A program made the position numbers and the translations under genes. 32,000 nucleotides of DNA from Desulfocapsa sulfexigens DSM 10523 (GTDB lineage: Bacteria; Desulfobacterota; Desulfobulbia; Desulfobulbales; Desulfocapsaceae): positions 1,620,001-1,652,000 of the forward strand of contig NC_020304.1 in assembly GCF_000341395.1 (NCBI RefSeq). Reading direction: 5' to 3'. Below are positions 12,520-30,775 of the stretch, one piece after another; the stretch's first letter is position 1, and every line of letters begins with the position of its first letter. The notes beneath the pieces are model-generated. The model did no database searches and was not told the origin of the DNA. It was given only the letters and a program-made list of their open reading frames with translations.

Positions 12520-12525
12520 TAAAAA

Positions 12526-13918: not shown

Positions 13919-13978
13919 GAGTGAAATTAAATCGAGAACAACGGTAAAGTACTGATAGTTTGATTTCACTCTGGCCCC
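13919..13978 (-). repeat. 60-nt imperfect palindrome, copy A (attC-like cassette boundary element)
   Basis: GAGTGAAATTAAATC...GTTTGATTTCACTC. Arms GAGTGAAAT / ATTTCACTC pair. 51 of 60 positions are identical to copy B at 16582..16641 by hand alignment. It overlaps the stop codon of the 13966..14604 gene. Confidence 0.6.
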
Positions 13979-14604
13979 TCCAATTCCTTGTCATCGCAAT
14001 CGGCTGGTAAGAAGGTGATTTTGAAAAAGCTATTACCACCCGCGGGAGTATATTCACCTGTATGTAAGCTCACTGTTACGAGTTCATCCTTCAATTGCGA
14101 AAGACTAGCACTCATTAAAATGCGTGCTTTGATCTTAAGGTCCCCTGCAAAGCATATGGTGTCTTGATCATTGTCCTGTCGTTCCGAAATGCCACCGTAT
14201 GTCTCTTCTTTGCATACGACCTTGAATGGCCCTTCTGTGGTATACAAACGTATTCTTGTTCTTCCTCCATGCAAATGCACATGTTTAGTGACTGTGTAGC
14301 AACCCACTCTCACTTTTGTTGGGGTATCCACTTCTATTGTACCTTCGAGGTCGACAGCAAAGGTGCAAATACTTTTCTTCTCATTGTCGACAAGCCATCG
14401 CGAAGTTGCGATAGCGCTACCCTCGATTTCAATCATATCAGATGTGCTGTTCAAAGTTACACTATCACCGCAATGTTTGTTGTTCACGGACTCCAGAACC
14501 TTAAAGCCTGTTACTTCCCAATTGGCATAGCCAAAGGCAAAAACACTGGATTGTGAAAGAGTGATAAGAAGTACGAGCGTAACAGCTAGCAAAGAATATC
14601 TCAT
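13966..14604 (-). CDS. Secreted hypothetical protein (212 aa, signal peptide, 6 Cys), last gene of the RiPP-like module
   Basis: N-terminal MRYSLLAVTLVLLITLSQSSVFA signal peptide. Composition looks beta-rich. 71 nt downstream of the radical SAM gene, same strand. Confidence 0.7.
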   Translation of the reverse strand: MRYSLLAVTLVLLITLSQSSVFAFGYANWEVTGFKVLESVNNKHCGDSVTLNSTSDMIEIEGSAIATSRWLVDNEKKSICTFAVDLEGTIEVDTPTKVRVGCYTVTKHVHLHGGRTRIRLYTTEGPFKVVCKEETYGGISERQDNDQDTICFAGDLKIKARILMSASLSQLKDELVTVSLHTGEYTPAGGNSFFKITFLPADCDDKELEGPE

Positions 14605-14675
14605 AATGTCCTCAAAACTTACTCTGATCCCTTTATTTGTTATTTGTTAATTTATCTTTGGCGCTATTCTATCCG

Positions 14676-16109
14676 TTAATAGAGACGGGTTGTAAGAGGA
14701 GCTGCCTTTGGACAAAATGGATTGGTGGTAAACAGGCGACCATAGGCTTTATATGTGTCTTTAAAACAATGCCCTTTTACCATGACACAAAATTCAAAAT
14801 TATCACATTCATAGCATGAAGAATTTTTAAAGTTTTCTTTTCTAGGATATGCTAGTTCCTTTAACTCTTGAGAGTTCCATACTGATTCAAGACTCGAGTC
14901 AGTTAAATCACCAACTAAAAAAGGTCCATTTTGCGGTACTTCCTCACAAATAGACACCTTTCCATCCGGTGCGATAATAAGTGAACTGCGGCCAGAAGAA
15001 CAACTGGGTCGATCTTTGAGCCAGTAATGAGCCCGCTCCTGATCGCTCATCATCGTCGGCTCGGGTAATCGATTATGGAAAATAGTTATTCCATCTGAAC
15101 CATACTTGTTTGCCAGCCAGTTCATTTTATCATCGAATTCTAGGAGTTGGTTCTCTCCTAATAGTATAGAATTGTTGTCTTTGTTCATTGATCGAAAAGC
15201 AGGTGAAAATTTCATTTCACAAATCCCGAGGTCACGGAGTGTAATGATTATATCTTCCAATTGATCAAAGTTGTGTTGAGTTATAATACTATTGGTACGA
15301 GTAAATATCTGTGTGTCTCGTAAATTCTCAAGGGTTTTAATAATCCGAGCATGTTGTCCAGATCGTCCTAAGATTAAATCCCCGGTCGATGAATTTGCGG
15401 CATCAACGCTTACTTGAAGATAATCAAGTCCTACTTCTTCAAGCCGCCGCACAATCTGTTTGTCGAGAAAAGCTTTGGTGGACATATCTACAACTATCCC
15501 AAGCTTTAAAGCATGCGCAATAATTTCAATTACGTCTGGATGACAGAAGGGATCACCGCCGCAAAAATTAACTTGGTTAGTGCCAAGTCTTCCCATCTCA
15601 TCGATTAATTCCAGAATCCGACTAGTTGCCAATTGGTAGTTGCCAGGAACTTTTCTTCGACAAGCGTAACAATATATACAGTCAGCCTGGCAGTTAAAAG
15701 TGATTTGAAAGATCAAAGAAATCGGCGCTTCAAGCCTTGTTTTCATGTCAAGGTGTTGCGCTGGAATAATGAAATCCGATGGATTAAATCGTTTAACTAT
15801 TTTGCCGACTGCATCTCGAATAAGCATCTTACCGTCTGGAGTGATGTAATTCAAAACCTCCATTAACTGTTTCCTGGAATCGGTGATGGGCAGACCTGAA
15901 AGGAATGAAATTATACCTACGACCTCCCCAACAGTTCGTTTCCCATCCAGAAGTGAAAAAATTGAAGCAGCTGGGGAGGGTAATACACCATACTCAAGTT
16001 CGAGATGAGGAAGATAGGAGATAACAACTTTTGTTTTTTCTCGACGCATGAAGACAAAAGGAGAAATTCCTAATACTTCATTGTCTCTAAATCCTTTTTC
16101 ATCAAGCAT
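14676..16109 (-). CDS. Radical SAM / SPASM-domain peptide maturase with N-terminal PqqD-like RRE
   Basis: CxxxCxxC in FNCQADCIYCY. GGDPF SAM-binding-type motif. The C-terminal Cys pattern C-x12-G-x4-C ... CxxCx5Cx6C ... C is typical of SPASM auxiliary 4Fe-4S sites. The N-terminal about 100 aa with LLDGKRTVGEVVGIISFL resembles a PqqD-like RiPP recognition element. Confidence 0.9.
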   Translation of the reverse strand: MLDEKGFRDNEVLGISPFVFMRREKTKVVISYLPHLELEYGVLPSPAASIFSLLDGKRTVGEVVGIISFLSGLPITDSRKQLMEVLNYITPDGKMLIRDAVGKIVKRFNPSDFIIPAQHLDMKTRLEAPISLIFQITFNCQADCIYCYACRRKVPGNYQLATSRILELIDEMGRLGTNQVNFCGGDPFCHPDVIEIIAHALKLGIVVDMSTKAFLDKQIVRRLEEVGLDYLQVSVDAANSSTGDLILGRSGQHARIIKTLENLRDTQIFTRTNSIITQHNFDQLEDIIITLRDLGICEMKFSPAFRSMNKDNNSILLGENQLLEFDDKMNWLANKYGSDGITIFHNRLPEPTMMSDQERAHYWLKDRPSCSSGRSSLIIAPDGKVSICEEVPQNGPFLVGDLTDSSLESVWNSQELKELAYPRKENFKNSSCYECDNFEFCVMVKGHCFKDTYKAYGRLFTTNPFCPKAAPLTTRLY

Positions 16110-16127
16110 ATAAGTTTCAGATAATAA

Positions 16128-16508
16128 TCATGTTGCTTTTGAACCACAGACTTGCCCATATGTACATGTAACGGGACCACCACCAGAATTTTTACCGCAG
16201 ACTTCATTTCCACATGTCCCGCTAGACTTACAGGTAACATCTGCATCAGAATTGCACGCTGAACCGGTACAAGCACCACCATCACAACTCGAGCTTGCAA
16301 GACAGGCCACGTGCGAACAAACTCCTGCCAAACAATCGTCAGGCCAGATCTTCGCTTCATTAACGATACCGATGAAGTCTTCATAGCCTGCTTCCTTATA
16401 AGCGTTCTTCAATTTAAGCCATACTTCCGAGGACTCTCCCTGACATGCGTTATCCACAATTGATTTTAGAAATTTTAAATCTCGACCTTCTTGTTTTTTT
16501 ACTGACAT
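16128..16508 (-). CDS. Cys-rich RiPP precursor peptide candidate (126 aa: about 58-aa leader plus 68-aa core with 11 Cys)
   Basis: GAGGAG lies 6 nt upstream of the ATG. The stop codon is 18 nt before the maturase start. The core is C-LAGV-C-SHVA-C-LASSS-C-DGGA-C-TGSA-C-NSDADVT-C-KSSGT-C-GNEV-C-GKNSGGGPVT-C-TYGQV-C-GSKAT, rich in Gly/Ser/Ala/Thr. Confidence 0.75.
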   Translation of the reverse strand: MSVKKQEGRDLKFLKSIVDNACQGESSEVWLKLKNAYKEAGYEDFIGIVNEAKIWPDDCLAGVCSHVACLASSSCDGGACTGSACNSDADVTCKSSGTCGNEVCGKNSGGGPVTCTYGQVCGSKAT

Positions 16509-16581
16509 GTTTTCTCCTCACTCACATTGACCCAGAGGGTAATGTCCCAAAACTTGATTAGTTGAGTAGTAATAAAGGACA

Positions 16582-16641
16582 GAGTAAAATTATAGCGAGA
16601 GCGACGGTAAAGTGCTGATGGGTTGATTTCACTCTGCCCCC
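16582..16641 (-). repeat. 60-nt imperfect palindrome, copy B (attC-like cassette boundary element)
   Basis: GAGTAAAATTATAGC...GGTTGATTTCACTC. See copy A. It lies between the rhodanese stop codon (16663) and the precursor gene. Confidence 0.6.
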
Positions 16642-16662
16642 TTTGTTTCTGTAATAAATGAT

Positions 16663-17049
16663 TTAAGGGTGTGATGGTATTTTTCCAGGTGTGCTTTTCT
16701 TACCTTCTGTTGCATAGCCATCTCGTTTCCACCAATCGAGGCCACCAAGCAATTCTTTAACCTTAAATCCAAGTTTTGAGAATTTAAGCGCACCTTTTGT
16801 TGAGGCATTGCAACCAATGCCATCGCAGTAAGTTACATATGTTTTCGTTTTGTCAAGATTACTTGTTGTTAGTTCGGACGTAGTGCTATGAGGAAAATTC
16901 ACTGATGAAGGAATATGCTCAACTTCAAAAGCTTGTTTTGACCGAGCATCTACAACAATGATATCTTGATTATTTTCCAAAGCCTCAAACAGATCCCACG
17001 AGTCTGTTTCATAGTTTAATTTTGCCTCGTAAAACTCAATTTGATTCAT
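16663..17049 (-). CDS. Rhodanese-domain protein (single-domain sulfurtransferase-like)
   Basis: 128 aa. IVVDARSKQAFEVEHIPSSVNFP and an active-site-loop-like YCDGIGCNAS. AAGGAA lies 9 nt upstream. Confidence 0.75.
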   Translation of the reverse strand: MNQIEFYEAKLNYETDSWDLFEALENNQDIIVVDARSKQAFEVEHIPSSVNFPHSTTSELTTSNLDKTKTYVTYCDGIGCNASTKGALKFSKLGFKVKELLGGLDWWKRDGYATEGKKSTPGKIPSHP

Positions 17050-17091
17050 AGCTATTGTTCCTTTGCGTATCGAAGAATTAAGCAGCAGCGT

Positions 17092-17142
17092 GGGGTGAAA
17101 TTGAGCGGAAGCCCGCGCCGTCCGCTGGAATGATGGGCTTGG
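17092..17142 (-). repeat. attC-like element related to copies A/B (weaker)
   Basis: GGGGTGAAATTGAGCGGAAG shares the GTGAAATT arm with copies A and B. It contains an AGCGGA(11 nt)TCCGCT stem. It directly follows the stop codon of the 17143..18450 gene. Pairing of the outer arms is poor. Confidence 0.3.
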
Positions 17143-18450
17143 CTATTCCACATTTTTACCTGATTCAATTGCTTCATATTCTTCAGGGTAATGCTCTTTC
17201 ATACAATCAGGGCATATGCCGTGACTGATATTTGCGTCAGAATTTTTGTGAATATAAACATCCACTTGTTCCCAGTATCCTTTGTCGTCACGAACTTTTT
17301 TACAAAATGAACAAAGAGGCAGAATCCCTTGTAAGGTTTTAATTTCATCAAAAGCCTTATTGAGTTCTTTAACATGTCTTTCTAGTTCTGCTTCTGCTTG
17401 TTTATGTGCTTCAATTTTTTTAGACAGTATGATGTTTGACTTATATATTTTTACTGCCATCAGTACGATTGAAATTAGGAGGATAAAAATGATTACGGTC
17501 TGGATCATATGCTGGGTGATGAAGCCACGGACAGTAATTATGCCGTAATCCTTATAGGGTCCGACGCGCAATTCTTTTAAAAGCTCATGCGCCTGTTGAT
17601 AATCGTAGGGAAGCGTCCATTCTTGGAACCCTGCCTTTTGAGCTACAGGGCTGTTGCTCTCAAGAGACAGCAGAGCTTTAGCGACATCCTTACTTAACTC
17701 ATTGGTTGCATTACGGGTCTTAGCAAAAGCCCATTCTGGATAAAGCTCTGAGCTTACCATCATGGGGAAGTCAGGATAATGCTTGGGGGCTAAAACACGA
17801 AAATTATCAAGATCAATCCGATTTGATTCTGAGAACTTCTCCAACATACCAGTTCTAATAACCGCGACATCTACAACCCCATCCAATACAGCCTGTATCT
17901 CCTTAGGCTGATCGCCAAGAAATTTTACTTCTTTGGCATCGTTATATGGATAAAAACCATGAGTCAGCATCTCCTTATAGCCGACCAGCCAACCGCCAAA
18001 GCCAAGTTTAGCAACACCACAGATGGTTTTGCCATATAAGTCTTCTATTGTTTTTATCCCACTATCAGCACGGGTGATTAATGTTGAGCCGAACTCGGCC
18101 ACTCCCCCTTTTTTTACCATTGTGAGGATGCGGGATATGCCAAAGTTCAACTCGAGATCCACATAAATTGCGGGCTGGGTAATAACGAAATCTATTTCCT
18201 GGTTTAAAACAAGGTTCCTAATACGGTCGAGTTCAATAGGCGGAACAGGAATCAGCCTAAAGTCATATTGAGGCAGAGACAATTGGAGGTAATCGATGGT
18301 TGGTTGCCATTCATCCTTGGCTATTTCAACTCCAGAGAGTGCAACAACCAGGACGTTTACCTTGTTCTGTTCATGGCTCTCAATGTGTTTAAATCCGGTA
18401 AGCGAAAGGAAACAAAATAATGCAATTAAACTTGCAATAAAACGTTTCAT
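17143..18450 (-). CDS. Membrane-anchored sensor-like protein: periplasmic PhnD-like binding domain, TM, coiled coil, C-terminal CxxC...H...CxxC tail
   Basis: The periplasmic domain is clearly paralogous to that of the first gene in the window (shared IDFV, FGGW, LYPEW-FA, ELR-GPY-D-G blocks). The tail is LPLCSFCKKVRDDKGYWEQVDVYIHKNSDANISHGICPDCMKEHYPE. No kinase, cyclase or HD domain. Confidence 0.8.
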   Translation of the reverse strand: MKRFIASLIALFCFLSLTGFKHIESHEQNKVNVLVVALSGVEIAKDEWQPTIDYLQLSLPQYDFRLIPVPPIELDRIRNLVLNQEIDFVITQPAIYVDLELNFGISRILTMVKKGGVAEFGSTLITRADSGIKTIEDLYGKTICGVAKLGFGGWLVGYKEMLTHGFYPYNDAKEVKFLGDQPKEIQAVLDGVVDVAVIRTGMLEKFSESNRIDLDNFRVLAPKHYPDFPMMVSSELYPEWAFAKTRNATNELSKDVAKALLSLESNSPVAQKAGFQEWTLPYDYQQAHELLKELRVGPYKDYGIITVRGFITQHMIQTVIIFILLISIVLMAVKIYKSNIILSKKIEAHKQAEAELERHVKELNKAFDEIKTLQGILPLCSFCKKVRDDKGYWEQVDVYIHKNSDANISHGICPDCMKEHYPEEYEAIESGKNVE

Positions 18451-18474
18451 AAGAGTTGGTTGCCTATAGTAGAC

Positions 18475-18552
18475 GTTTAACGATCAATGTCACTTGCACC
18501 ATCAATGAATTTGCAGCGTCAGCGCCGCCGTGTTTCTCGGCGTCAAGTGAAC
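18475..18552 (-). repeat. Truncated attC-like site (core GTTAAAC plus inner inverted repeats; inverse core missing)
   Basis: Read on the minus strand: GTTCACTTGACGCC ... GGTGCAAGTGAC ATTGATC GTTAAAC. The last box matches GTTRRRY exactly and lies 24 nt upstream of the 18450 start codon. The place where the RYYYAAC box is expected is occupied by the IS110-family remnant. Confidence 0.5.
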
Positions 18553-18668
18553 AGCCATGATAATAAATATGGCCTTGCCTTGGATGAAATAGAATAGTGG
18601 AAGCACGACCAAGCATATTTACTCAAACCAAAGGAAGCCATTTTGTGAAATTTTAGACCAAACAACAT

Positions 18669-18830
18669 TTGTATTACTGCGGAATCGATCTTCATGCCAG
18701 AAAAATGTATGTCGTTGTAATCAATGATAAAGGAAAAATGCTCCTCCACAAAAACATCAAAACTTATACAGATGAAAAGATGATAGTTATATCAGCCTTT
18801 CTGGAAGATACAGATATTGGAGTTGAATGA
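18669..18830 (+). pseudogene. N-terminal fragment (53 codons) of an IS110-family DEDD transposase
   Basis: Translation (TTG) YYCGIDLHARKMYVVVINDKGKMLLHKNIK... matches the conserved IS110-family N-terminus (compare LYAGIDLHSNNSHLAILDQDDKRVFHKKL in the intact copy at 25440). It ends prematurely at TGA 18828..18830. Confidence 0.6.
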
Positions 18831-18834
18831 GTTC

Positions 18835-19059
18835 TCTGCTGATATTAACTTGCAGATTTCTGCATACAGTGCCTCTGCCTGTTCCAGAAACAGATCAGCT
18901 ACTGCCGGATCAGAATGCCCCCGCCCGCGCTTCCTTGATAATACCGATCGAGATCTCCAGGCCGAACGGTTCCTTGTCTGACTGCCACCTATCTCAAATC
19001 CTAATCATCCCCAATGATCCTATAGAAGACCTTGCATATAACAATTTTTTTTGGGGCAT
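18835..19059 (-). pseudogene. Decayed transposase remnant, IS3-family OrfA-like (frameshifted)
   Basis: Minus-strand pieces in three frames: MPQKKLLY..., FGLEISIGIIKEARAGA, PAVADL...AEALYAEICKLISAENSF. They resemble the HTH/leucine-zipper OrfA of IS3-family elements. No intact ORF. Confidence 0.35.
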
Positions 19060-19237
19060 TGGTAGTATTCTCGCTGACGAATGTTACGCATAAGAGGAGG
19101 CAAGAGTGCATGGCAATGACGTGGCAAACCCAAAGAATATCTGGTATATCTGAAGGTTTTTAAAAACCGCTATGTTCTTGCCGTCCCTTTAATGCGATGG
19201 TTTGGTACTATACTCTGTGAATGAGAGTATCTTTAAG

Positions 19238-19873
19238 CTAATTGTTGATTTCAACGAGGTCTGTTTGCATTAGCTCCAGTTGTTTTTCATACTCCATTAT
19301 GTGAGCTACCTTTTTGACAAAATTAGAATCATACCCAAAACGCTTGAGGAGATGAAAACCAACCTCTATTCCGGAAGTAATACCACCTCCAGTAACGATG
19401 CGACCAGTATCAACGACTCTGTGCCGATCAATTATACATTTGGGTGCGATCTGTGCTAGCCTATCAATTGGTGCAATTAGCTCACTTGGGTCTTGGCTCT
19501 TTCTGTTGGTTGCCTGAACACCATCAAGCAAGCCGGCAACACCATAAACCCAAGAGCCTGTACAGACGCTGACCAGCATAGTCTCTTCTGGAAGTGCTTT
19601 TACAAAGTTGATTAGCCTTTTATTATGAATCTCAGATCGTAAACCAATGCCACCAGGAACAAGAAATGCGTCCATGCTTGGATTGTCGTTCAGACCGTAT
19701 TTTGGTATGACTCGCAGGCCGGCTGTTGCCATAACAGGTGCCATAGTATCTGCAATGATAAATGTTTCCAATTCCGGGTCCATTCTTTTGGCTACCGCAA
19801 AGACTCCTGTTGGCCCAGCCCAGTCAATGACTTCTGCATTGTCACAAATATAAACACCTAATCTTTTTTTCAT
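19238..19873 (-). CDS. DJ-1/PfpI-family protein
   Basis: I moved the start to the ATG at 19873 (MKKRLGVYIC...), which has GGAG upstream. The nucleophile-elbow SVCTGSW and FLVPGGIG are typical of the DJ-1/ThiJ/PfpI fold. Confidence 0.8.
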   Translation of the reverse strand: MKKRLGVYICDNAEVIDWAGPTGVFAVAKRMDPELETFIIADTMAPVMATAGLRVIPKYGLNDNPSMDAFLVPGGIGLRSEIHNKRLINFVKALPEETMLVSVCTGSWVYGVAGLLDGVQATNRKSQDPSELIAPIDRLAQIAPKCIIDRHRVVDTGRIVTGGGITSGIEVGFHLLKRFGYDSNFVKKVAHIMEYEKQLELMQTDLVEINN

Positions 19874-19904
19874 AGTTTTCTCCTTGTTGATTATTGTTAA
19901 AGGT

Positions 19905-19917
19905 AGACCGGTCTGTC
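19905..19917. promoter_or_regulatory. Candidate TetR operator copy 1 (AGACCGGTCTGTC)
   Basis: One of three AGACnnGTCTGTC 13-mers. It lies 32 nt upstream of the DJ-1 start codon. Its core AGACCGGTCT is a perfect palindrome. Confidence 0.5.
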
Positions 19918-19978
19918 TGTGGTCGCGAAAATTAAAGCCATCTATGCATATTATCATTCCTCCTTTAAGCTGGCGCAC

Positions 19979-19991
19979 AGACAGGTCTGTC
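19979..19991. promoter_or_regulatory. Candidate TetR operator copy 2 (AGACAGGTCTGTC)
   Basis: Part of the palindrome ACAGACAGGTCTGT (19977..19990), in the TetR / DJ-1 intergenic region. Confidence 0.5.
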
Positions 19992-20012
19992 TGTGTTGTT
20001 GTAAAAAATATA

Positions 20013-20600
20013 TTACCGATTCAGTAAGCTTTTGACTGCTTGCTGAGCGGCTTCAATGGGCCAAGTATCATTGTAATTTTGACTGGAAACGATAGCTCCC
20101 TCGACCAACACATAGACCATTTGCACAGTTTGCTGAATTTCCAGTTCTGCGTAAGAGGAATTCGCCTCGATAAGGTCATGAATAATATTTTGTAAATAGG
20201 CCTGAAGGTCATTTTTATGCTTAATGACCTCCTCTCTTATTTTTGTATCTATTGCTGGTACTTCTGCGGCTATATTTAAAAAAGCACAGCCTCTGAAATT
20301 ACTTTCCGACATCCACTTTTTTAAAAAATCAAACACTGCCATTAGTTTTTCTTCGGCAGTACTTTTTTCTGATACGCTTTCCTTCAACCATCCCATCCAT
20401 AAAACATGTCTAGCTTGAAGATATGCAATACATAATGCCTCTTTAGATGGAAAGTGAGCATAAAATGTGGCCTTTGCTACTTTTGACTCAGAGATTATTT
20501 GATTAATGCCTGTAGCTAAATACCCTTGAGTATAAAAGAGATTAAGAGCTGTTTCAATGATGCGGTCTCTAGCGCTGCTTTCAATAATTTTTTGTAACAT
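20013..20600 (-). CDS. TetR/AcrR-family transcriptional regulator
   Basis: The N-terminal HTH RIIETALNLFYTQGYLATGINQIISESKVAKATFYAHFPSKEAL is typical of TetR_N. Confidence 0.9.
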   Translation of the reverse strand: MLQKIIESSARDRIIETALNLFYTQGYLATGINQIISESKVAKATFYAHFPSKEALCIAYLQARHVLWMGWLKESVSEKSTAEEKLMAVFDFLKKWMSESNFRGCAFLNIAAEVPAIDTKIREEVIKHKNDLQAYLQNIIHDLIEANSSYAELEIQQTVQMVYVLVEGAIVSSQNYNDTWPIEAAQQAVKSLLNR

Positions 20601-20620
20601 TGTTCAATGATACGCTAGAC

Positions 20621-20633
20621 AGACTTGTCTGTC
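20621..20633. promoter_or_regulatory. Candidate TetR operator copy 3 (AGACTTGTCTGTC)
   Basis: Part of the palindrome GACAGACTTGTCTGTC (20618..20633), 18-33 nt upstream of the TetR start codon. This is a position expected for autoregulation. Confidence 0.5.
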
Positions 20634-20664
20634 AAGTCTGTTTTGTGTTTTGCCGGATCTGGAC

Positions 20665-20730
20665 GTCGAACGCCGCAATTCAGTGGAGCCGACGCCAGCG
20701 AGGCTTCCGTGTGGGATTGCATTGTTAGAT
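20665..20730 (-). repeat. attC-like recombination site (66 bp)
   Basis: Minus strand: ATCTAAC (perfect RYYYAAC, 3 nt after the GNAT stop codon) AAT GCAAT ... GGAAGCC tcgctggcgtc GGCTCC ... ATTGC GGC GTTCGAC. It has nested inverted repeats and terminal AAC/GTT boxes. Confidence 0.6.
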
Positions 20731-20733
20731 TTC

Positions 20734-21294: not shown

Positions 21295-21330
21295 AAAATA
21301 TGCCGATCACGTTTAAAAGGTTAAAATTAG

Positions 21331-21388
21331 TGAAGCCAACTCCAAAGAACGTGCGTGCTTCGCAAGTCTTGTTGGTCGATATGTTGCA
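21331..21388 (-). repeat. attC-like element, 'GCCAAC' subfamily, copy 1
   Basis: TGAAGCCAACTCCAAAGAACGTG ... CTTGTTGGTCGAT. Arms GCCAAC..AAGAAC / GTCTT.GTTGG pair with bulges. 21 of 23 nt are identical to 28837..28859. Confidence 0.45.
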
Positions 21389-22057: not shown

Positions 22058-22096
22058 GATGATTTTTTTACTTACTTGTTGCTAATTTTATTTGAA

Positions 22097-23259: not shown

Positions 23260-24434
23260 CTATCTAAAGTCCTTTTTTTTGCATTTATGATGGATTTGAA
23301 AGTGTTGACAAATTTGTTAAACTCTTTTTCCGTTGTCACAAGAGGAGGGTCAATCCTAAACAAGGCTTTTCGGTTGCATACAATAAAACCTTGTTCAATC
23401 AAATCGTTATAGATATCATCTCCTACTTTTTTGCTTACCAATTCGACAGCAAACATTAGCCCCTTACCACGAACTTCCAAAACAATTTCACCATCTACGA
23501 GAGACTCTAGTTGAGAAAGAAACAAGCGGCCATTTTTTTCAGCATGTTCAATGATGTTGTTGCTTTGTATTTGTCGTATTACCTCGTTGGCGATTGCTGC
23601 ACCGAGTGGGTCATTTTGATGTGATTGTAGGTAGCTGAACGGCTTTGCTTTGCGCACCTCCTTTACGCTCCCGGGGCTGAGGACAGCCACACTTACTGGA
23701 TATCCATTACCAATTCCTTTACCAATTGCAATCATATCCGGAGTAATGCCATAATGCTGAAAACCAAACCATTTTCCTGTACGACCGATGCCAGTTGTTA
23801 CTTCATTGGCAATAATTTTACCTTTGTTTTTCCTGACAATATTGGCTAAATTTTGAACCATAGATTTAGGGGGAAATCTAACAAAACCTGAAGCACTACC
23901 AGGTTCAAAGATAAACTCTGATATATTGTTTGGTAGGTTTGTAAATTTGTAGCACTCAGTGGAACATTTTTTATTTTTTGGACATGATTCACAGTATTGC
24001 CAATCAAAAATATGCCAATCGGTATCTCTATCGATTACAGAGCGGTATGACCCTAAATATGCATCGTGTAAAGCCAAAGTGATTTTTTTCTTGGAGATGT
24101 GCGTTGTGATTTGTCGCAAGAGTTCTATAGCTTCACTGCCAGAACTAAGAAAAGTGACTTCCCCATTTTTAAAACTTGTGAGAGATAAGATTGTATCGGC
24201 AGCTTTTTCTAAAATTCTATTTGAATAGCAGAATCCTGTGTGCATTACGGATTCAATTTGATTCTTTATAACATCATTTATTTGCTTATTTTTATGGCCT
24301 AACGCTGTACACCATATACCAGATTCCAAATCCATATATTGTTTTCCACTCTCATCAATCAGGTACACACCATGACTGTCAACGATGTTTGGAATTTTCA
24401 ATTCATGTATGGAATAATTGCCAATGTTTTTCAT
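23256..24434 (-). CDS. Class-III (PLP-dependent) aminotransferase
   Basis: SGSEAIE, ANEVTTGIGRTGKWFGFQHYGITPDMIAIGKGIGNGYP (PLP-lysine region). It contains an unusual Cys-rich insertion, WQYCESCPKNKKCSTECYKF. Confidence 0.85.
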   Translation of the reverse strand: MKNIGNYSIHELKIPNIVDSHGVYLIDESGKQYMDLESGIWCTALGHKNKQINDVIKNQIESVMHTGFCYSNRILEKAADTILSLTSFKNGEVTFLSSGSEAIELLRQITTHISKKKITLALHDAYLGSYRSVIDRDTDWHIFDWQYCESCPKNKKCSTECYKFTNLPNNISEFIFEPGSASGFVRFPPKSMVQNLANIVRKNKGKIIANEVTTGIGRTGKWFGFQHYGITPDMIAIGKGIGNGYPVSVAVLSPGSVKEVRKAKPFSYLQSHQNDPLGAAIANEVIRQIQSNNIIEHAEKNGRLFLSQLESLVDGEIVLEVRGKGLMFAVELVSKKVGDDIYNDLIEQGFIVCNRKALFRIDPPLVTTEKEFNKFVNTFKSIINAKKRTLDR

Positions 24435-24461
24435 TATACTTTATTTTGTTGATGGCGATAA

Positions 24462-24595
24462 TTTTAACACATAGTGTGCTTGTAGGACTTGCCGGCCATG
24501 GAATTAGCGTGAACTTTGAGCGTGGCCAAAAACTTGGCCTACAACCAAGAATGGCGCGTGTGAGCCGGTCAGAGTGTAAGCTTTTGTGAGCATTT
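24462..24595 (-). repeat. attC-like inter-cassette palindrome
   Basis: Inner arms GCTTGTAGG (24478..24486) / CCTACAACC (24538..24546). A GTTAAAA box (24462..24468 on the minus strand) lies 27 nt upstream of the aminotransferase start codon. No clear RYYYAAC box next to the upstream stop codon. Confidence 0.4.
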
Positions 24596-25234
24596 TCATA
24601 ATTTTTCTAGTAATTGTTTTTCATAGGCAGGATCAGGTCTAAAACCATATCCTTTGGCTTTGTCCAATGGCTTTTTAGCTTTTGAGTAGTTGCCTTTTTG
24701 ATATTCAAGAATCGACCAATTTAATAAAATTAGAGGATGTTTAGGTTCGATTTTTGTAGCTTCTTGAAATAGTTTTTCTGCTTTGATAAAAGACTCATGA
24801 GGATTTTTATCCTTTTCTTTCAAGTAAGAACCTAGAAAAGTATATGAGTATGCAAGGTCTCCTAAAATTAAACCATTTTCGGGAGCCATTGATTTTGCCA
24901 AATTGAGGTAGTTGATGGACTCGTTAATGTTGAATAATGGATCTTCCTGAGCCGCTCTATTACCCATGATTAAGCCAAAACCCCACAATGCATCAAGGTT
25001 GTTATGATCAAACATCCAGGCTTGGTTGAACCGTTTTATTGCTGTATCGTGATCTCCTTTATAGAAATATTTCCAGCCTAATTGTGCCGTTTCCCTACTA
25101 AGCTTTTTATCTGGTTGTATGTGTGACTTGTTTGCACCGCCATACATCGGCATTTCGTTGGATGGTCTGTCACTCGCAAAAGCCACAGAATGAAGAATGA
25201 GAAAAATAGATAATAGGAGAACCGATACTTTCAT
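24596..25234 (-). CDS. Secreted TPR-repeat protein
   Basis: Signal peptide MKVSVLLLSIFLILHSVAFA. Repeated 34-aa TPR-like units (GDHDTAIKRFNQAW..., YSKAKKPLDKA...). Confidence 0.75.
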   Translation of the reverse strand: MKVSVLLLSIFLILHSVAFASDRPSNEMPMYGGANKSHIQPDKKLSRETAQLGWKYFYKGDHDTAIKRFNQAWMFDHNNLDALWGFGLIMGNRAAQEDPLFNINESINYLNLAKSMAPENGLILGDLAYSYTFLGSYLKEKDKNPHESFIKAEKLFQEATKIEPKHPLILLNWSILEYQKGNYSKAKKPLDKAKGYGFRPDPAYEKQLLEKL

Positions 25235-25439
25235 GATGTCCTTTTTTGATGGTTAACTCGTCAGCTGTGTATTTTAAAAGGGAAAGTCTTCTTTGGCCTT
25301 TGAGGCCCAGCAAAAGCCAAAAGCAGATTTGATAATCATATAAAAGGCACCTCGGCCTGAAACTCAAGATCGAGCTTCAGGCCCAACCAAGATGGTTGTA
25401 TAATTGAGGTAGATAAACCATTACAAAGGAGGTGCCTTT

Positions 25440-26462
25440 ATGACTTCATTATACGCTGGAATCGATCTGCATTCAAACAATAGTCATTTAGCTATACTGG
25501 ATCAGGATGACAAACGAGTCTTTCACAAGAAACTTCCCAATATGGAAGATGTTCTGCTGGCTGAGCTCAAACCATTCCAAGATGAATTGTCTGCTGTTGT
25601 GGTGGAATCGACTTTCAATTGGTATTGGCTTGTAGACTGCCTGATGGAACAACGGTACGAGGTATTGCTGGCAAATCCTGCGGCCATGCTGCAGTACAAG
25701 GGGCTTAAGCATGTTGACGACAAACATGATGCCTTTTGGCTGGCCCATATGGCGAGGTTGGGCATTCTTCCACAGGGTTATATTTACCCTAAAGAGGAAA
25801 GACCTTTTCGTGATTTGCTGAGAAAAAGAGGTCATTTGGTTCGTCTGCGAACATCCGTAATCAACAGCCTGCAGGGGATCATCAGTCGAAACTGCGGCTG
25901 TAGCTTGAGCGGCAACAAGATGAAGCGCATGCGCGAGAATCATGTGGCGCCTCTTCTGACCGCTAATGAAGATCTTGCATTTAGTGGTGAAGTGTCCAGA
26001 GAGGTAATTGATTTTCTCGGACAGCAGATATCTCGGATTGAGCCTTTGGTGCTTGAGAAAGTACAACTACGCAAACCATTTCAATGCTTGCAGAGCATAC
26101 CGGGAGTTGGCAAAATCCTCTCTTTAACAATTATGCTGGAAACCGGACCAATCACTCGTTTCAAGAAGGTTGGTAATTTCACATCATATTGTCGCAAAGT
26201 ACCGACAACCTGGACAAGCAACAGCAAAAAGAAGGGCAAGGGAAACAGTAAAAACGGTAACAAGTATCTGGCCTGGACCTTTTCTGAGGCTGCGGAGTAT
26301 TCTCGACGCCACAGTGATCAAGCCAGAGCATTTTTCAATCGGAAAGCAGCCAGGACGAATAAATCGGTAGCCTACAGTGCGCTGGCGCACAAGTTGGCAA
26401 GGGCTTCTTACTACATGATGAGGGATCAGGTATGTTTTAACCCGAACAAGCTTTTTACCTAG
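25440..26462 (+). CDS. IS110-family (DEDD) transposase/recombinase
   Basis: 340 aa. N-terminal YAGIDLHS..., ESTFNWYWL, KHVDDKHDAFWLAHMARLGILP, C-terminal LQSIPGVGKILSLTIMLETG. AAGGAGG lies 8 nt upstream. Confidence 0.92.
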   Translation: MTSLYAGIDLHSNNSHLAILDQDDKRVFHKKLPNMEDVLLAELKPFQDELSAVVVESTFNWYWLVDCLMEQRYEVLLANPAAMLQYKGLKHVDDKHDAFWLAHMARLGILPQGYIYPKEERPFRDLLRKRGHLVRLRTSVINSLQGIISRNCGCSLSGNKMKRMRENHVAPLLTANEDLAFSGEVSREVIDFLGQQISRIEPLVLEKVQLRKPFQCLQSIPGVGKILSLTIMLETGPITRFKKVGNFTSYCRKVPTTWTSNSKKKGKGNSKNGNKYLAWTFSEAAEYSRRHSDQARAFFNRKAARTNKSVAYSALAHKLARASYYMMRDQVCFNPNKLFT

Positions 26463-26573
26463 GAATGGCCGAGACGGCGAACCTGAAAAGGGGTTGGTTG
26501 AAACCACCAGACTTGATTGGCAACCGTCTCGCCCTGTGATGATTTATTTTTACCGCCCATGGCGTGAACCACT
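26463..26573 (+). ncRNA. Candidate IS-encoded guide RNA (bridge/seek-RNA-like) in the 3' non-coding end of the IS
   Basis: The long hairpin 26467..26534 has a CGAGACGG/CCGTCTCG stem plus flanking pairs, enclosing a large interior. That interior holds AAGGGGTTGGTTGAAACCACCAG (26488..26510), which repeats the IS right end (26574..26597), and CCTGAAA, which matches the flanks. No expression evidence. Confidence 0.3.
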
Positions 26574-26884
26574 AAGGGGTTGGCTTACAACCACGAGGCC
26601 TGAAACAAACGCTTGGACACGTCATGGAACCAATAATTTTCTAGGCCCACAATTGTGGGTAGGGGCTGTATGGAAGACAAATGGCTGTTTCACTATGAGT
26701 TTTGAGGAATATTTGCCACACAGCCATTTGTTTCCTGCTGGTTCATAGATCCTGAGGCTGACTGGTGCGGTAATATTACCAACACGACAACTCTGAAATA
26801 TAGGGTGCGGAAGAAAGGAATAGTACAAAGACAGAGAGAGCAGCTGGACTTTGACTAAACCCTTGCAAGGGAAATGATCACTTT

Positions 26885-27217
26885 TTACTTAGTGGGTGAT
26901 CCCTTTATTTTTTCCTTAGCCTTGTAGCCATATTGAGTATCGCCAAATTGTTCTGATAAATATTTGTACAAACCAAGAGCTTCATCTTGTTTTTCGAGTT
27001 TTTCTAATGCAAGGGCTTTTAAAAATACAATTTCAGCTTTCATTTCTCGAGATGGCTCCTCATAGTTTTCGGCACGAGAAGTAAGTGCTAGCACGTCTTC
27101 ATAATTTCCATCATCATAACTACTGTATGCTTTACTCAGTGCACCTCTTTGAGCTAAAGTACTGCTACATCCGCTAATCAGTAGGGCTAACATAAAAAAA
27201 ACGATATTTTTTTTCAT
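26885..27217 (-). CDS. Small lipoprotein with TPR-like helical repeats
   Basis: MKKNIVFFMLALLISGC lipobox. The helical repeat composition (YEDVLALTSRA..., EALGLYKYL...) resembles YbgF/BamD-type TPR proteins. Confidence 0.7.
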   Translation of the reverse strand: MKKNIVFFMLALLISGCSSTLAQRGALSKAYSSYDDGNYEDVLALTSRAENYEEPSREMKAEIVFLKALALEKLEKQDEALGLYKYLSEQFGDTQYGYKAKEKIKGSPTK

Positions 27218-27233
27218 TGATGACTTCCTTTAA

Positions 27234-27321
27234 TTATAACGCCTTACGTCACCGTCAGCAAAAAGACAGAGCGAGGAACGAACGACGCCTTTTGATGTTT
27301 GAGTGCATGTGATTGTTATGG
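27234..27321 (-). repeat. attC-like recombination site (88 bp)
   Basis: Minus strand: CCATAAC directly abuts the ArsM stop codon (TAG|CCATAAC), and it ends GTTATAA 16 nt upstream of the lipoprotein start codon. ATAAC/GTTAT are complementary. The GC-rich interior has partial pairing. Confidence 0.5.
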
Positions 27322-28119
27322 CTATGGTTTTACTGCCTCAATAGTTGCCGAAACAACGTAATCCTCAACTTTACTTCCAGGCGCCCAGTTACGAATAAAG
27401 GTTTTACTTTCGTCTTTTTGCCTGATCTGGATATTCTCGAAGCCGGCTTGCTGTAACATAGATTCGAGTTCTTGGACGTAAGATGCGCCAGCGATACAAC
27501 CAGTATACATTGCCATATCTTCCTTTACGTCGCCAGGCATCTCAGCGGTGGCAACAATATCGGAAATTGCCAACCTCCCCCCTTGTTTTAATACGCGGAA
27601 TGCCTCACGGAACACCCTTTCTTTCTTGGGAGAGAGGTTGATTACACAATTGGAAATGATGACATCAATAATCCCATCGGCAATTGGCAGGTTTTCCAAC
27701 TCCCCCAGGCGAAAATCGACATTTTCATAACCTGAAATATCAGAATTTTGGCGAGCTTTGCTTACCATTTCCGGTGTCATATCAACACCTATAACTTGCC
27801 CTGATTCGCCAACTTCCTTAACGGCAAGAAAGGAATCAAAACCACCACCACTCCCCAAATCTAAAACAGTCTCGCCAGATTTTAGTAAGGCTATAGCTTT
27901 GGGGTTTCCGCAACCTAAACCCATATTTGCACCGTCTGGTACCTCATTTACATCAGCATTTGAATAACCGAGTTCCATTGAGGTGGCTTTTGCATCGGGG
28001 GCAGATTTGCCGCAACATGAAAATGCTGAACATCCACAACCGGAATTGCCTGATTCGGCAACCTTGCCATACTGTTCACGAACGGCTTTGCGAATATTGT
28101 CATTACTTAACTGTGTCAT
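27322..28119 (-). CDS. arsM: Arsenite S-adenosylmethionine methyltransferase-like (ArsM-type class I methyltransferase)
   Basis: I moved the start to the ATG at 28119 (MTQLSNDN...), which has AAGGAGA upstream. Cys-rich N-terminus GCGCSAFSCCG, GLGCGNP, SAM motif VLDLGSGGGFD, ISNCVINLSP, and a later conserved Cys (YTGCIAGA). Confidence 0.8.
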   Translation of the reverse strand: MTQLSNDNIRKAVREQYGKVAESGNSGCGCSAFSCCGKSAPDAKATSMELGYSNADVNEVPDGANMGLGCGNPKAIALLKSGETVLDLGSGGGFDSFLAVKEVGESGQVIGVDMTPEMVSKARQNSDISGYENVDFRLGELENLPIADGIIDVIISNCVINLSPKKERVFREAFRVLKQGGRLAISDIVATAEMPGDVKEDMAMYTGCIAGASYVQELESMLQQAGFENIQIRQKDESKTFIRNWAPGSKVEDYVVSATIEAVKP

Positions 28120-28207
28120 TGTTGTCTCCTTTGATGAGGTTAAAAAAGATACGTACACTCTTGTAGACGGAGACAAGCAAAAAAGGATGCATATTTTATT
28201 GAGCTAG

Positions 28208-28753
28208 CTAGCAATATTTACAATATTTATTCTTTTTCTTATACGAAACCAATGTGTTGTTGTGATTGATTTCAATTTGACAGCAGTCATGTAGCATTGT
28301 TTTTAGTAAAGCTCTGCCCCTTTGAACTCTTGATTTTGCGCCAGACAATGAAATGTTTTCCATTTCTGCTATTTCTTTTTGGTTTTTATGCTCTAATTCA
28401 GAAAGCCGAACAGCTTCACGATATTTATCAGGTAGTTCTTTAACCATCGGCTCAAGACATGATGATAATTCTTTTCTGATTGTTTCCTTTTCATCGTGTT
28501 GAGGTTGCTCTATCCAATCAGGCAGATTTTTGGTTGGTCTTCTTGAACGATAGTAGTCTATTACCGTATTTCTAGTTATTTGATACAACCAACTCTCAAG
28601 CTTTTTATTTTCCTTCAGAGAATCAATTCGAGTATGTATTTTTATAAATACATCTTGGAGGAGATCATCCACCACATCTTCAGCAACTTTACCTCTTATG
28701 AAGGCGGTTAACTTCATGTGGTATTCATGCCAGATGTTTTCGGTTGATTTCAT
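28208..28753 (-). CDS. ECF-type sigma-70 factor with Cys-rich C-terminal tail (SigZ-like)
   Basis: I moved the start to the ATG at 28753 (MKSTENIW...), which has AAGGAA upstream. Region 2 (DLLQDVFIKIH, SWLYQITRNTVIDYYR) and region 4 (EIAEMENISLSGAKSRVQRGRALLK) are present. The tail is HDCCQIEINHNNTLVSYKKKNKYCKYC. Confidence 0.8.
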   Translation of the reverse strand: MKSTENIWHEYHMKLTAFIRGKVAEDVVDDLLQDVFIKIHTRIDSLKENKKLESWLYQITRNTVIDYYRSRRPTKNLPDWIEQPQHDEKETIRKELSSCLEPMVKELPDKYREAVRLSELEHKNQKEIAEMENISLSGAKSRVQRGRALLKTMLHDCCQIEINHNNTLVSYKKKNKYCKYC

Positions 28754-28836
28754 GCTGATTCCTTTTGAGGCGAATAGCGCCCGAGCTAACCGGCTTGCCA
28801 ACCAGTTGGCTACCAATTTTAGACGATTGTAATTGT

Positions 28837-28885
28837 TGAAGCCAACTCAAAAGAACGGGTGTGGTCGCTAGTCGGGTTGATTAGT
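28837..28885 (-). repeat. attC-like element, 'GCCAAC' subfamily, copy 2
   Basis: TGAAGCCAACTCAAAAGAACGGG ... GGGTTGATT. 21 of 23 nt are identical to 21331..21353. A further AGTTGGCT/AGCCAACT inverted repeat extends towards the sigma gene. Confidence 0.4.
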
Positions 28886-28916
28886 TTGTTTTTAAAAGCA
28901 GGCACCTATGGTATCT

Positions 28917-29771
28917 TTATTTCTTTTTGAATAATTTGTAAATTGCAGAAAAGTCTTCTTGATCCATACCTTCTTCAAATGTTCTAGCGTAAAGTTCTTT
29001 TATTACAGAGCCCGTAAAAAGAGTTTTTTTCTGTTCATATGCTAAGTCTTGGAGGCAATGAAGATCTTTATATATTAAGGCACATGAAAAATGAGTTGAA
29101 AAATCTTCTTCCAGTAACTTCATCTTCTTGGCGTTGAGCACGAGGGAATTTCCACCGCCTACAGATAAAATTTCTAATATTTCTTTCTTTGCGATTCCAA
29201 TTTCTTCACCTAGGGACAAGGCTTCAGCAATAGTTGCCATAAAGCTGCCTAATGCAAGATTATTGATCAGTTTCATTTTTGTAGCTAGTGCTGGCTCATT
29301 AAAATAAAAAAGATGTTTCCCAATATTTTCCAATAATGGTTTAACCTTTTCATATCCTGTTGTATCACCGCTAACTAAAACTGTAAGAGAGCCTTGTGAT
29401 GCAGGAACAACGCTACCTAGTACTGGAGCTTCTAGATAAGTAGCCCCTGCATTTTTGCAAAGTTCATGGAAATTTGAAACTTCTTTAAAATGGTTTGTAG
29501 ATAAGTCTATAATAATCTTTCCTGCAATTTCACCGGACAAAATTCCATTTTCTTGGGTAAGAACAGAATTGACAGCATTGCTGTCAAACATACATAAAAA
29601 AACAACTTCGGCATTTTGAGTAACTGAAACGGGAGATGATGCAATTTCAACCAACATGCCCTCGGATTTCGAATGAGTTCTGTTCCAAACAGTCAGATTA
29701 TGACCACAGTCTAAAAGTCTTCCGGCAATTGCTTTGCCAAGGTGTCCAAGCCCTATGAATCCTAATTGCAT
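28917..29771 (-). CDS. NAD(P)-dependent dehydrogenase, 3-hydroxyisobutyrate / 6-phosphogluconate dehydrogenase-like family
   Basis: N-terminal Rossmann motif MQLGFIGLGHLGKAIAGRLL. Length and the central LEAPVLGS / helical C-terminal domain fit the HIBADH-type fold. Confidence 0.8.
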   Translation of the reverse strand: MQLGFIGLGHLGKAIAGRLLDCGHNLTVWNRTHSKSEGMLVEIASSPVSVTQNAEVVFLCMFDSNAVNSVLTQENGILSGEIAGKIIIDLSTNHFKEVSNFHELCKNAGATYLEAPVLGSVVPASQGSLTVLVSGDTTGYEKVKPLLENIGKHLFYFNEPALATKMKLINNLALGSFMATIAEALSLGEEIGIAKKEILEILSVGGGNSLVLNAKKMKLLEEDFSTHFSCALIYKDLHCLQDLAYEQKKTLFTGSVIKELYARTFEEGMDQEDFSAIYKLFKKK

Positions 29772-29802
29772 ATTGTTACCTCAATAATTTTATTTGGGAG
29801 GC

Positions 29803-30672
29803 TTATCGTAAAGCGTAACCGACTGGCAAAAACCGAGTGACCGATAGGGAGCGGAGCTTTTGCAAATCCGAGTTTACGCGTTTGTTATGTTTTATTTCGC
29901 CTGTGAATTGGCTCCATCCTTGGTGAACTGTAAATCCATATACTGAGGATAGTGCTTCATCAAGTGTTTTACCTTGTTCTAGTGCGGTAAATAGTTTCCT
30001 AAACTTGCTCGGACTCATATCGTGTAACCACCTTACATACATTTCACTCTGTCGATAAAACATATGTGTTTTTAAGCCAAAGCTGCTTGCTGTTTTCCTG
30101 AATATAAGGGCACCAGAACCATTTGGTTTGATGGTCTTTCCTTGGTATATAGCTTCAGCTGCTTCTTGCTCAGTAACCTTTTCGGCTCCACCCCCATTTG
30201 ACACATAGACTGCCAAACCTTCTTTGAACCACACTGGTAATTTGGTTTGATAATTCCAACGACCAATATCCTGGGTGTGCTGTAAGTGTGACAGCTCATG
30301 CGTGAGTATCCCTGGAATTCTATTTTTTTGTTTTAATAACTTTGGAGAAGCAAACAGCCTATCTCCAATAACGCAGCTAGATGGATATTTTGAAGCACAA
30401 TAAGAAGAAAAGCTGTCAATAGATTTTGTTACGTAGATTACTACAGGTTTTTCGAATGCTCCTTGCTTGTTTTCAATAGTTTGTACGGCTGCCTCCAAGT
30501 ATGGAGCTATTTCTTCAGCATATTTTATAGAACCATCTTCATACTTTATCCGGGAATCTTGTTTCAAACTCTGAAACCCGTCTGTTGATTTTGTCATTGC
30601 GAGCACAGTGCTAAACGTTGTGCACCCATTTAACGCCAATAGACAAAAAATGATTATAGATATATAGCGCAT
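29803..30672 (-). CDS. Lipoprotein, MA-clan zinc metallopeptidase-like (paralogous in motif to 10643..11485)
   Basis: I moved the start to the ATG at 30672 (MRYISIIIFCLLALNGC lipobox), which has AGGAG 6 nt upstream. HELSH (HExxH) and VWFKEGLAVYV. The last about 28 codons are read from the attC-like site. Confidence 0.7.
   Translation of the reverse strand: MRYISIIIFCLLALNGCTTFSTVLAMTKSTDGFQSLKQDSRIKYEDGSIKYAEEIAPYLEAAVQTIENKQGAFEKPVVIYVTKSIDSFSSYCASKYPSSCVIGDRLFASPKLLKQKNRIPGILTHELSHLQHTQDIGRWNYQTKLPVWFKEGLAVYVSNGGGAEKVTEQEAAEAIYQGKTIKPNGSGALIFRKTASSFGLKTHMFYRQSEMYVRWLHDMSPSKFRKLFTALEQGKTLDEALSSVYGFTVHQGWSQFTGEIKHNKRVNSDLQKLRSLSVTRFLPVGYALR
29813..29890 (-). repeat. attC-like recombination site (78 bp) embedded in the 3' end of the peptidase ORF
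   Basis: Minus strand: ACATAAC AAACGC GTAAACTCGG ... CTCGGTTTTTGC CAGTCG GTTACGC. The inverse core ACATAAC is the exact complement of the GTTATGT box at the 5' edge of the same cassette (30688..30694). Confidence 0.55.
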
Positions 30673-30687
30673 GGGCACTCCTATCAA

Positions 30688-30775
30688 ACATAACGACCCA
30701 ACTCAGGCGACCGCTGCCGCAAGGCGATGCCAGGAGTGGTGCGGTGGCCGGTCGAACTGAAGCTCCGTATTATGC
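30688..30775 (-). repeat. attC-like recombination site (88 bp), uppermost one visible
   Basis: Minus strand: GCATAATAC ... GTTCGACCGGCCACCGC ... GCGGCAGCGGTCGCC ... GTTATGT. The interior arms CGACCG..CCGC / GCGG..CGGTCG pair. The GTTATGT box lies 15 nt upstream of the peptidase start codon. Confidence 0.5.

Follow-up and report, generated by a model that had tools for sequence, protein, structure and literature searches.

The window analysed here is a stretch of 32,000 nucleotides (nt) from the chromosome of Desulfocapsa sulfexigens DSM 10523, which we compared with loci labelled L001 to L132. Eight of its proteins are identical to AGF78002-AGF78022. From 13966 to 30687 the large open reading frames (ORFs), as called and assigned with Pfam, are of unrelated function and all lie on the minus strand, with the transposase of an IS110-family insertion sequence (IS) as the sole exception (Table 1). 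Small plus-strand ORFs of 88 and 41 amino acids (aa) have been called by others at 18.8-19.2 kb. An earlier note had described this one-strand layout and had taken the region from 13.9 to 30.8 kb for an integron-type array of gene cassettes and their attC recombination sites, without an integrase in view and similar to a cluster of attC sites without an integron integrase (CALIN). It had also judged the region to be more AT-rich than the left flank, which is confirmed by a GC content of 40.5% at 13880-30775 vs 45.2% at 1-13879, a difference of 4.7 points.

Table 1. Genes, multi-gene units and attC-like sites of the window. Site numbers follow the rank of the score with covariance model R2; a slash within GTT marks the point of recombination.
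Feature	Position	Strand	Details
DUF6178 gene, UWK_01442	12526-13866		
Left end of strain-specific block	13880-17049	-	Rhodanese and RiPP-like trio; no attC-like signal
RiPP-like (ribosomally synthesized and post-translationally modified peptide) trio	13966-16508	-	126-aa ORF, radical SAM/SPASM, 212-aa ORF; Pfam
Rhodanese	16663-17049	-	Pfam
Site 4	17069-17143	-	R2 16.4 bits; nhmmer 6.6 bits; L boxes in good agreement, TTCCAGCGGAC ... GCTGCTTAATTC
Unit 7, PhnD-type periplasmic sensor protein	17143-18450	-	Pfam PF12974
Site 5	18476-18565	-	R2 14.8 bits; 7-bp L-box stem TCACTTG/CAAGTGA
Site 8	19036-19089	-	R2 10.6 bits; only the R boxes match (GCGTAAC ... GTTATAT)
Unit 5, TetR and DJ-1/PfpI	19238-20600	-	Predicted own promoter and operator
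DJ-1/PfpI protein	19238-19978	-	Pfam
TetR regulator	20013-20600	-	Pfam
Site 7	20665-20730	-	R2 11.8 bits; nhmmer 8.4 bits; ATCTAAC-AAT-GCAAT...ATTGC-GGC-GTTCGAC
Unit 4, transglutaminase-like protein and GNAT	20734-22057	-	D2 repeat at 21301-21357
GNAT acetyltransferase GNAT186	20734-21294	-	Pfam
Transglutaminase-like protein	21467-22057	-	Pfam
Site 1	22097-22165	-	R2 21.4 bits, best in window; R'' TTATAAC, R' GTTATAT, 6/7 complementary
Unit 3, TPR110, TPR212, aminotransferase, GNAT, UWK_01453	22194-27217	-	IS inside
UWK_01453, small protein	22194-22628	-	No Pfam family
GNAT	22828-23259	-	Overlaps aminotransferase by 4 nt; Pfam
Class-III aminotransferase	23256-24434	-	Pfam
Eroded attC homologue 5' of aminotransferase	24462-24590	-	Homologous to L008 1676-1798
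TPR protein TPR212 (212 aa)	24596-25234	-	Pfam
Block with IS110-family transposase, flanked by non-coding DNA	25235-26884	+	Interrupts unit 3
IS110-family transposase	25440-26462	+	Pfam PF01548/PF02371
TPR protein TPR110 (110 aa)	26885-27217	-	Pfam
Site 2	27234-27321	-	R2 18.7 bits; R'' CCATAAC then AAT; GGC before R' GTTATAA
Unit 2, dehydrogenase, ECF sigma, ArsM	27322-29771	-	Spacers 31 and 100 nt
Arsenite methyltransferase ArsM	27322-28176	-	Pfam; NCBIfam NF008823, 373.8 bits
ECF sigma factor	28208-28816	-	Pfam
3-Hydroxyisobutyrate-type dehydrogenase	28917-29771	-	Pfam
Site 6, attC of the peptidase cassette	29801-29890	-	R2 13.0 bits; R'' ACATAAC; L-box stems conserved
MA-family peptidase, lipoprotein-like	29803-30672	-	Pfam PF13485
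Site 3	30688-30775	-	R2 17.9 bits; R'' GCATAAT, R' G/TTATGT

As reference attC sites we used those of class 1 integrons from plasmids. In eight of nine of these sites, dfrA5 being the exception, the R'' box pairs with R' in the minimum-energy fold, and they fold at -12 to -32 kcal/mol with z-scores of -2 to -6. The covariance model R1, built from eight clinical class 1 attC sites, is narrow and dominated by the aadA type; real and held-out class 1 sites receive 27-81 bits. A tblastn search with IntI1 over the comparison loci found an integrase gene, intI, of 56% identity in L060 and an intI remnant in L039, and next to these R1 detects five and two attC sites, respectively, with 16-42 bits. 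A third attC of L039 (9106-9206) is evident from its fold of -34 kcal/mol. The second model, R2, was made from 16 real attC sites of class 1 integrons and two environmental arrays (alignment A6) and contains no sequence of the window.

The eight best matches of R2 in the window, scoring from 21.4 down to 10.6 bits, share the minus strand, and each coincides with a gene junction of the 17.07-30.78 kb stretch; the next match (9.6 bits) is on the plus strand. Control searches without filters, in 95.5 kb from Desulfocapsa relatives and 84.6 kb from other genomes, yielded no score above 12.4 bits. Over 1.58 Mb (the window and 99 comparison loci, default filters), scores of at least 14.3 bits outside the window occur only in the arrays of L060, L039 and L038, and the four window sites at 16-21 bits are unequalled outside real integron arrays. 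Since the held-out true attC of L039 (9106-9206) obtains just 16.4 bits with R2, the scores of the window are within the range of genuine divergent sites. Likewise, a sequence-only hidden Markov model (HMM) of A6, run with nhmmer, places window junctions among its seven best non-training matches in 1.66 Mb three times, with site 1 as the best of all.

Evidence at the level of the junctions comes from the MA-family peptidase, which we compared in the window and in three other genomic contexts (L128, L129 and L131). L128 (JGI Ga0675941_000070, 1-14000) holds more than 20 small co-oriented genes, attC sites similar to Vibrio cholerae repeats (VCRs) and an IS3 insertion; it is a canonical large array, with textbook attC sites in almost all spacers (nhmmer E as low as 6e-6), in which the peptidase stands between a Na/Ca-exchanger cassette and a rhodanese cassette. 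The neighbours of the peptidase on both sides differ among L128, L129, L131 and the window. In the window, L128 and L131 the cassette opens with G/TTATGT, a short leader and ATG CG, each time behind a different upstream attC; in the window this TTATGT belongs to site 3, an attC whose own cassette, upstream, is lost or has no ORF. At the 3' end an attC of about 90 nt, [A/G]CATAAC-AA-CGCGTAAAC-TCGGA...CGGTTACGC, is kept in all four contexts. Its copies have a mean column identity of 78% and share 22 conserved pairs, with bulges, plus three compensatory ones, and similarity stops at the R' position, beyond which the downstream neighbours differ. The R'' box ACATAAC is an exact (7/7) complement of the cassette's own 5' GTTATGT, as a circularised cassette would require. 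Site 6 is also related to attC sites of L039 and L038.

The peptidase starts with the ATG at 30672 (a TTG start was considered and rejected), and its homologues either end at ...GEIK or carry a tail HNKRVNSD...LP.GYA, in the form HNKRVNSDWQKRRSLSVALLLP.GYA or variously truncated. The last 28 codons of the window gene, from HN at the R'' box on, are the translation of its own attC (29803-29890), and variable truncation is expected if such a tail is read-through into non-coding DNA. The ACATAAC at 29884 is thus not at or near a stop codon, as had been supposed; the peptidase ORF runs through it to a stop at 29803-29805. Judged from the sequences of these four contexts, the MA peptidase unit is a proven integron cassette: different arrays contain the gene along with its attC, and homology ends at G/TT. 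The junction-precise comparison that the earlier note had proposed is therefore positive for one cassette.

The individual sites are in different states of preservation. Both AAC and GTT cores are kept in sites 1, 2, 7 and 8, and mutated cores are found in sites 3 to 6. Site 1 folds at -9.1 kcal/mol (z -3.2), although not in the shape of an attC; site 2 has eroded inner stems (-5.3 kcal/mol, z +0.8), site 7 has a weak attC-shaped minimum-energy fold (-6.7 kcal/mol) and site 8, the weakest, reaches only -1.5 kcal/mol and could be a chance match. Site 3, where AAC has become AAT, forms one long hairpin, with the R box closing it, at -15.9 kcal/mol. Site 4 has lost both R boxes (GCCAAGC), leaving an AGC core and no R'; in site 5 the R'' core is mutated (TATTATC, with ATC), R' reads GTTAAA and the fold is -13.5 kcal/mol (z -2.1); in site 6 the R' core reads G/ATAAGC, GTT having become GAT. 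The layout of an attC is recognisable in sites 3, 5, 6 and 7. Complementarity also extends across cassettes: R'' of site 1 matches R' of site 2 in 7/7 positions and R'' of site 7 matches R' of site 1 in 6/7, which, given the common ATAAC/GTTAT consensus, may be taken as modest evidence.

No integrase accompanies these sites. A Pfam scan found a tyrosine recombinase in none of the 30 large window ORFs, and by tblastn with IntI1 neither the window nor the adjoining 10 kb on its right has an intI; the latter encode an aldo/keto reductase, an MFS transporter, two T2SSE ATPases and a U32 peptidase. Rightward of the first attC-like site, 616 nt without coding sequence precede a divergent aldo/keto reductase gene that is conserved in relatives; the earlier note had seen this side correctly, with about 600 bp of non-coding DNA and no intI. 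A search for an intI remnant in 30776-31391 or nearby found none. Hence the intI, attI and promoter Pc beside the first cassette that make up a complete integron are missing, and the window has neither the tRNA gene nor the recombinase of an integrase-borne island at a tRNA. A tyrosine-recombinase fragment in L105 was rejected as an integron integrase; it has 24% identity and adjoins truA and ppk2.

The interval from LysE (5267-5857) to the aldo/keto reductase gene (31392 onward) is a plasticity zone, a hypervariable locus with different DNA in relatives. In L103 the DUF6178 gene (97% identical) comes immediately after LysE, with other genes behind it. L100, L101 and L103 are homologous to the window as far as 13879, beyond which each goes on in its own way; L124, with a reductase 90% identical, has 7.6 kb of unrelated genes in the interval and no attC signal. 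The segment 6017-12279 (carbonic anhydrase, a LuxR-type regulator and four hypothetical genes) is missing from the close relative L103 and is a second strain-specific insertion beside the array.

Taken together, we consider it probable that 17.07-30.78 kb is a CALIN-like cassette array of integron origin, without an integrase of its own, in this hypervariable locus. The central claim of the earlier note is thus supported by the R2 matches and the peptidase cassette. Of the extent it gave, the part from 17.07 to 30.78 kb stands, while 13.9-17.0 kb (rhodanese and RiPP trio) has no attC support, although the array may extend left to 13.88 kb. The units also turned out to be fewer and larger than it had taken them to be.

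An integron integrase recombines the folded bottom strand of attC at G/TT. Units once inserted in this way would each be a gene with its own attC behind it, and the genes would all point the same way; attachment-site-like elements oriented like the genes are found at seven or eight junctions. The array would be old and decaying, with cores mutated (AAC to AAT, ATC or AGC; GTT to GAT), stems eroded and the site lost altogether at some junctions, so that two to five genes from former cassettes would now be joined in one unit. Some of these units may have their own predicted promoters, namely the TetR promoter with its operator palindrome and the D2 repeat before the ECF sigma and GNAT186 genes. 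Most sites are probably no longer recombined and the array is probably mostly inactive. It is possible, though we hold it with reserve, that the array has been caught in the middle of domestication, where erosion of attC sites has fused cassettes into transcription units with acquired regulation of their own; the latter would be the TetR operator and the duplicated promoter region common to the ECF sigma/ArsM operon and the GNAT gene.

Several observations weigh against an integron origin. R1 yields at most 13 bits in the window (E of at least 0.3), which is noise level; without R2 the evidence would favour the absence of an array, a verdict that would have been wrong. The four R2 scores of 16-21 bits would be near E = 1 at genome scale, and E-values from the shortened calibration are rough. 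In alignment A7 79.8% of cells are paired, but as A7 was fitted to the model its pair counts are biased and are not independent evidence. Table S3 of IntegronFinder 2.0 lists for this genome two small complete integrons (one attC with three proteins, three attC with five proteins) and no CALIN. The program reports CALIN from two attC sites upward (PMC9024848), and the gap between attC-like sites from 22165 to 27234 exceeds the 4 kb of the CALIN definition (at least two attC within 4 kb). Most window sites have single-strand folds no better than shuffled sequence (-1.5 to -15.9 kcal/mol, z +0.8 to -3.2), whereas real attC sites reach -12 to -34 kcal/mol with z-scores between -2 and -6, and intact AAC/GTT cores never coincide with a stable attC-shaped fold. 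With R2, no attC-like site was found at the junctions at 28.8, 25.3, 22.7 and 21.3 kb or anywhere left of 17069. For a cassette, it is unusual to hold three to five genes together with regulators. Finally, the element above the aminotransferase is shared between L008 and the window together with the downstream gene, not the upstream gene, and such a block of attC-like element and aminotransferase behind different upstream genes does not fit simple cassette logic; the cassette arrangement is accordingly not seen at this junction. In the window copy of this element both cores are mutated and R2 finds no match, while the copy in L008 has 16.7 bits and intact GAAC and GTTATGT.

Some of the evidence offered in the earlier note has also lost its weight. 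Each R-type box it quoted is present, but pairs of RYYYAAC and GTTRRRY boxes do not mark junctions: the window contains 43 cases of AAC...GTT 7-mers with at least 6/7 complementarity at distances of 40-140 nt, most of them within coding sequence, and among the junctions listed only 22097-22165 attains 6/7. As this is chance level, simple R-box statistics are no evidence either way. The junction palindromes fared similarly, since most junctions fold no better than shuffled sequence (z -2.3 to +1.5). We take these z-scores of whole spacers, which at first pointed to the absence of attC, as a sign of erosion. The boxes at 24462 and 25251 are without model support. Among the junctions described as weak, the one at 17.1 kb is the fourth best of the window (16.4 bits), whereas those at 21.3 and 28.8 kb indeed have no site. 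Rfam gave no match in the window at the gathering score or at E up to 1.

Two other explanations have to be considered. The array might still be active, its weak attC sites being recombined in trans by one of two resident integron integrases, and would then be a working reservoir and not a fossil. The genome does have two complete integrons, the four sites mentioned above retain both cores, three units have complementary cassette ends (7/7, 7/7 and 6/7), and the content of the locus differs between close relatives. However, it is precisely the sites with intact cores (1, 2, 7 and 8) that fold worst, the structurally best sites (3, 5 and 6) have mutated cores, and contigs from four sequencing runs of nearly identical strains all have the same gene order, so we regard activity as unlikely. 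An ordinary genomic island or plasticity zone without integron ancestry, in which co-oriented accessory operons had come together by other recombination and attC-like scores were due to chance or to terminators and other palindromes, would suit the noise of R1, the chance-level box pairs, the shuffle-level folds, the missing CALIN entry, the operon-like spacing with unit-specific promoter-like and operator sequences, and the unrelated DNA without attC signal at the same locus of relatives, but it is very improbable and largely refuted by the 1.58-Mb search with R2 and the ends of the peptidase cassette, as it leaves unexplained four matches of 16-21 bits in 14 kb, the placement of all eight best matches on one strand and the fact that four genomes keep the peptidase cassette and its attC with junction precision.

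Returning to the array of integron origin, some of its other units have relatives in comparable surroundings. A homologue of the aminotransferase in Desulfobacter vibrioformis (L038 9909-11212) has attC sites on both sides (16.5 and 29.6 bits), and homologues adjoin the arrays of L039 (4811-9206), a Desulfobulbaceae metagenome-assembled genome with an intI remnant of 51 aa, and of L060 (3-5908), where intI is co-oriented with its cassettes. Thus, aminotransferase homologues lie in or beside integron arrays at three of 80 GTDB loci, which we judge to be far above chance. No conserved neighbourhood was seen around the aminotransferase in GTDB genomes.

The small protein UWK_01453 has homologues of 70-92% identity in different phyla (Ignavibacteria, Gammaproteobacteria, Candidatus Scalindua) and on many short metagenome contigs, a pattern that would suit a widely mobile cassette gene. 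An R''-like ATATAAC-A about 30 nt past its stop codon, in the R'' region of site 1, recurs after the homologous gene in L132. Downstream of dnaE, L132 carries a short run of small co-oriented genes (680-5260), where a unit begins with G/TTAGAG and ends with CTCTAAC (7/7 complementary) and which therefore looks like another degenerate array; the sequence-only attC HMM finds no match in this run. The PhnD-type sensor has a homologue in L111 (81% nucleotide identity), the likeness being confined to the coding region. No attC-like site was found inside unit 2.

The spacers of the region contain further elements. A near-consensus sigma-70 promoter, TTGACA-17-TATCAT, is predicted at 20635-20607 upstream of TetR and overlaps a palindrome with 11-bp arms, AGACAGACTTGTCTGTCAAGTCTGT (20617-20643); together with the related half-site ACAGACAGACCTGTCT between TetR and DJ-1 (19979-20012), this palindrome is probably the TetR operator. 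A repeat search of the window found no junction repeat family and only two repeats, D1 and D2, of two copies each, neither of which is attC-like. D2 is a promoter-like repeat of 57 nt (21301-21357 and 28807-28863, 74% identical) that contains TTGGCT-N18-TAAAAT/TAAACG and lies 5' of the GNAT186 and ECF sigma genes; it may be a shared promoter or regulator site linking two units of the array. D1, a hairpin repeat of 78 nt (13902-13979 and 16565-16642, 82% identical, with arms of about 19 nt and a loop of 27 nt), brackets the radical SAM/SPASM trio; since the minus strand has a T-run 3' of it, it resembles a terminator in two copies. The D1 hairpins were also considered as attC sites of another type and rejected, as they have no AAC/GTT ends, no model match and the T-run behind them.

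The IS110-family element, within 25235-26904, lies next to the 3' end of the TPR110 gene, and its transposase is 45-50% identical to ISGsu4-like transposases. The Logan contigs L001 and L003 part from the window sequence at 26904 and end 46 nt further on. The short repeat in which these contigs end (L001 12868-12913) recurs after the Usp gene in the relative L103 (6768-6813).

A degenerate CALIN-like array belongs to an already known kind of system. CALINs, introduced in 2016 with IntegronFinder, are interpreted in the literature as degraded integrons (PMC9024848). Like them, the window has co-oriented unrelated genes between attC-type sites with no intI nearby, and at least one of its cassettes is shared with other arrays at G/TT; unlike them, its sites are below the reporting level of the program, several junctions have no site, and units comprise up to five genes with regulators and promoter-like sequences. 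With sedentary chromosomal integrons such as the Vibrio cholerae superintegron it has in common a long chromosomal array of unrelated accessory genes in one orientation, strain-specific content and ORFs that read into their attC. It differs from these by the lack of an adjacent intI, attI and Pc, and by dissimilar attC-like sites that form no repeat family, whereas arrays of the VCR type have highly similar sites. As in class 1 integron arrays, the sites are heterogeneous in sequence and length and have the layout R''/L''/L'/R', and TAAC-AAT...GGC-GTTA in sites 2 and 7 can be compared with the attC sites of aadB and aadA; unlike class 1 arrays, the window has no intI1 and no resistance genes, and its sites fall short of the -12 to -32 kcal/mol, the z of -2 to -6 and the 27-81 bits with R1 of real class 1 attC sites.

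Overall, 14-17 kb of a complete genome can be traced back to integron cassettes although the reference tool does not list them as CALIN. As this required a broader attC model and a junction-precise comparison, counts of integron-derived DNA at default thresholds are lower bounds. The array gives a concrete origin for about 20 accessory genes of a sulfur-disproportionating bacterium, among them ArsM with its ECF sigma factor, DJ-1 with TetR, a rhodanese-adjacent sensor, acetyltransferases and an aminotransferase, and it is a natural example of the fate of cassettes once the recombination machinery ceases to act. If the array is indeed in the course of domestication, this would be one route from integron cassettes to ordinary chromosomal operons, and standard attC thresholds would miss a sizeable share of the integron-derived DNA in environmental genomes.

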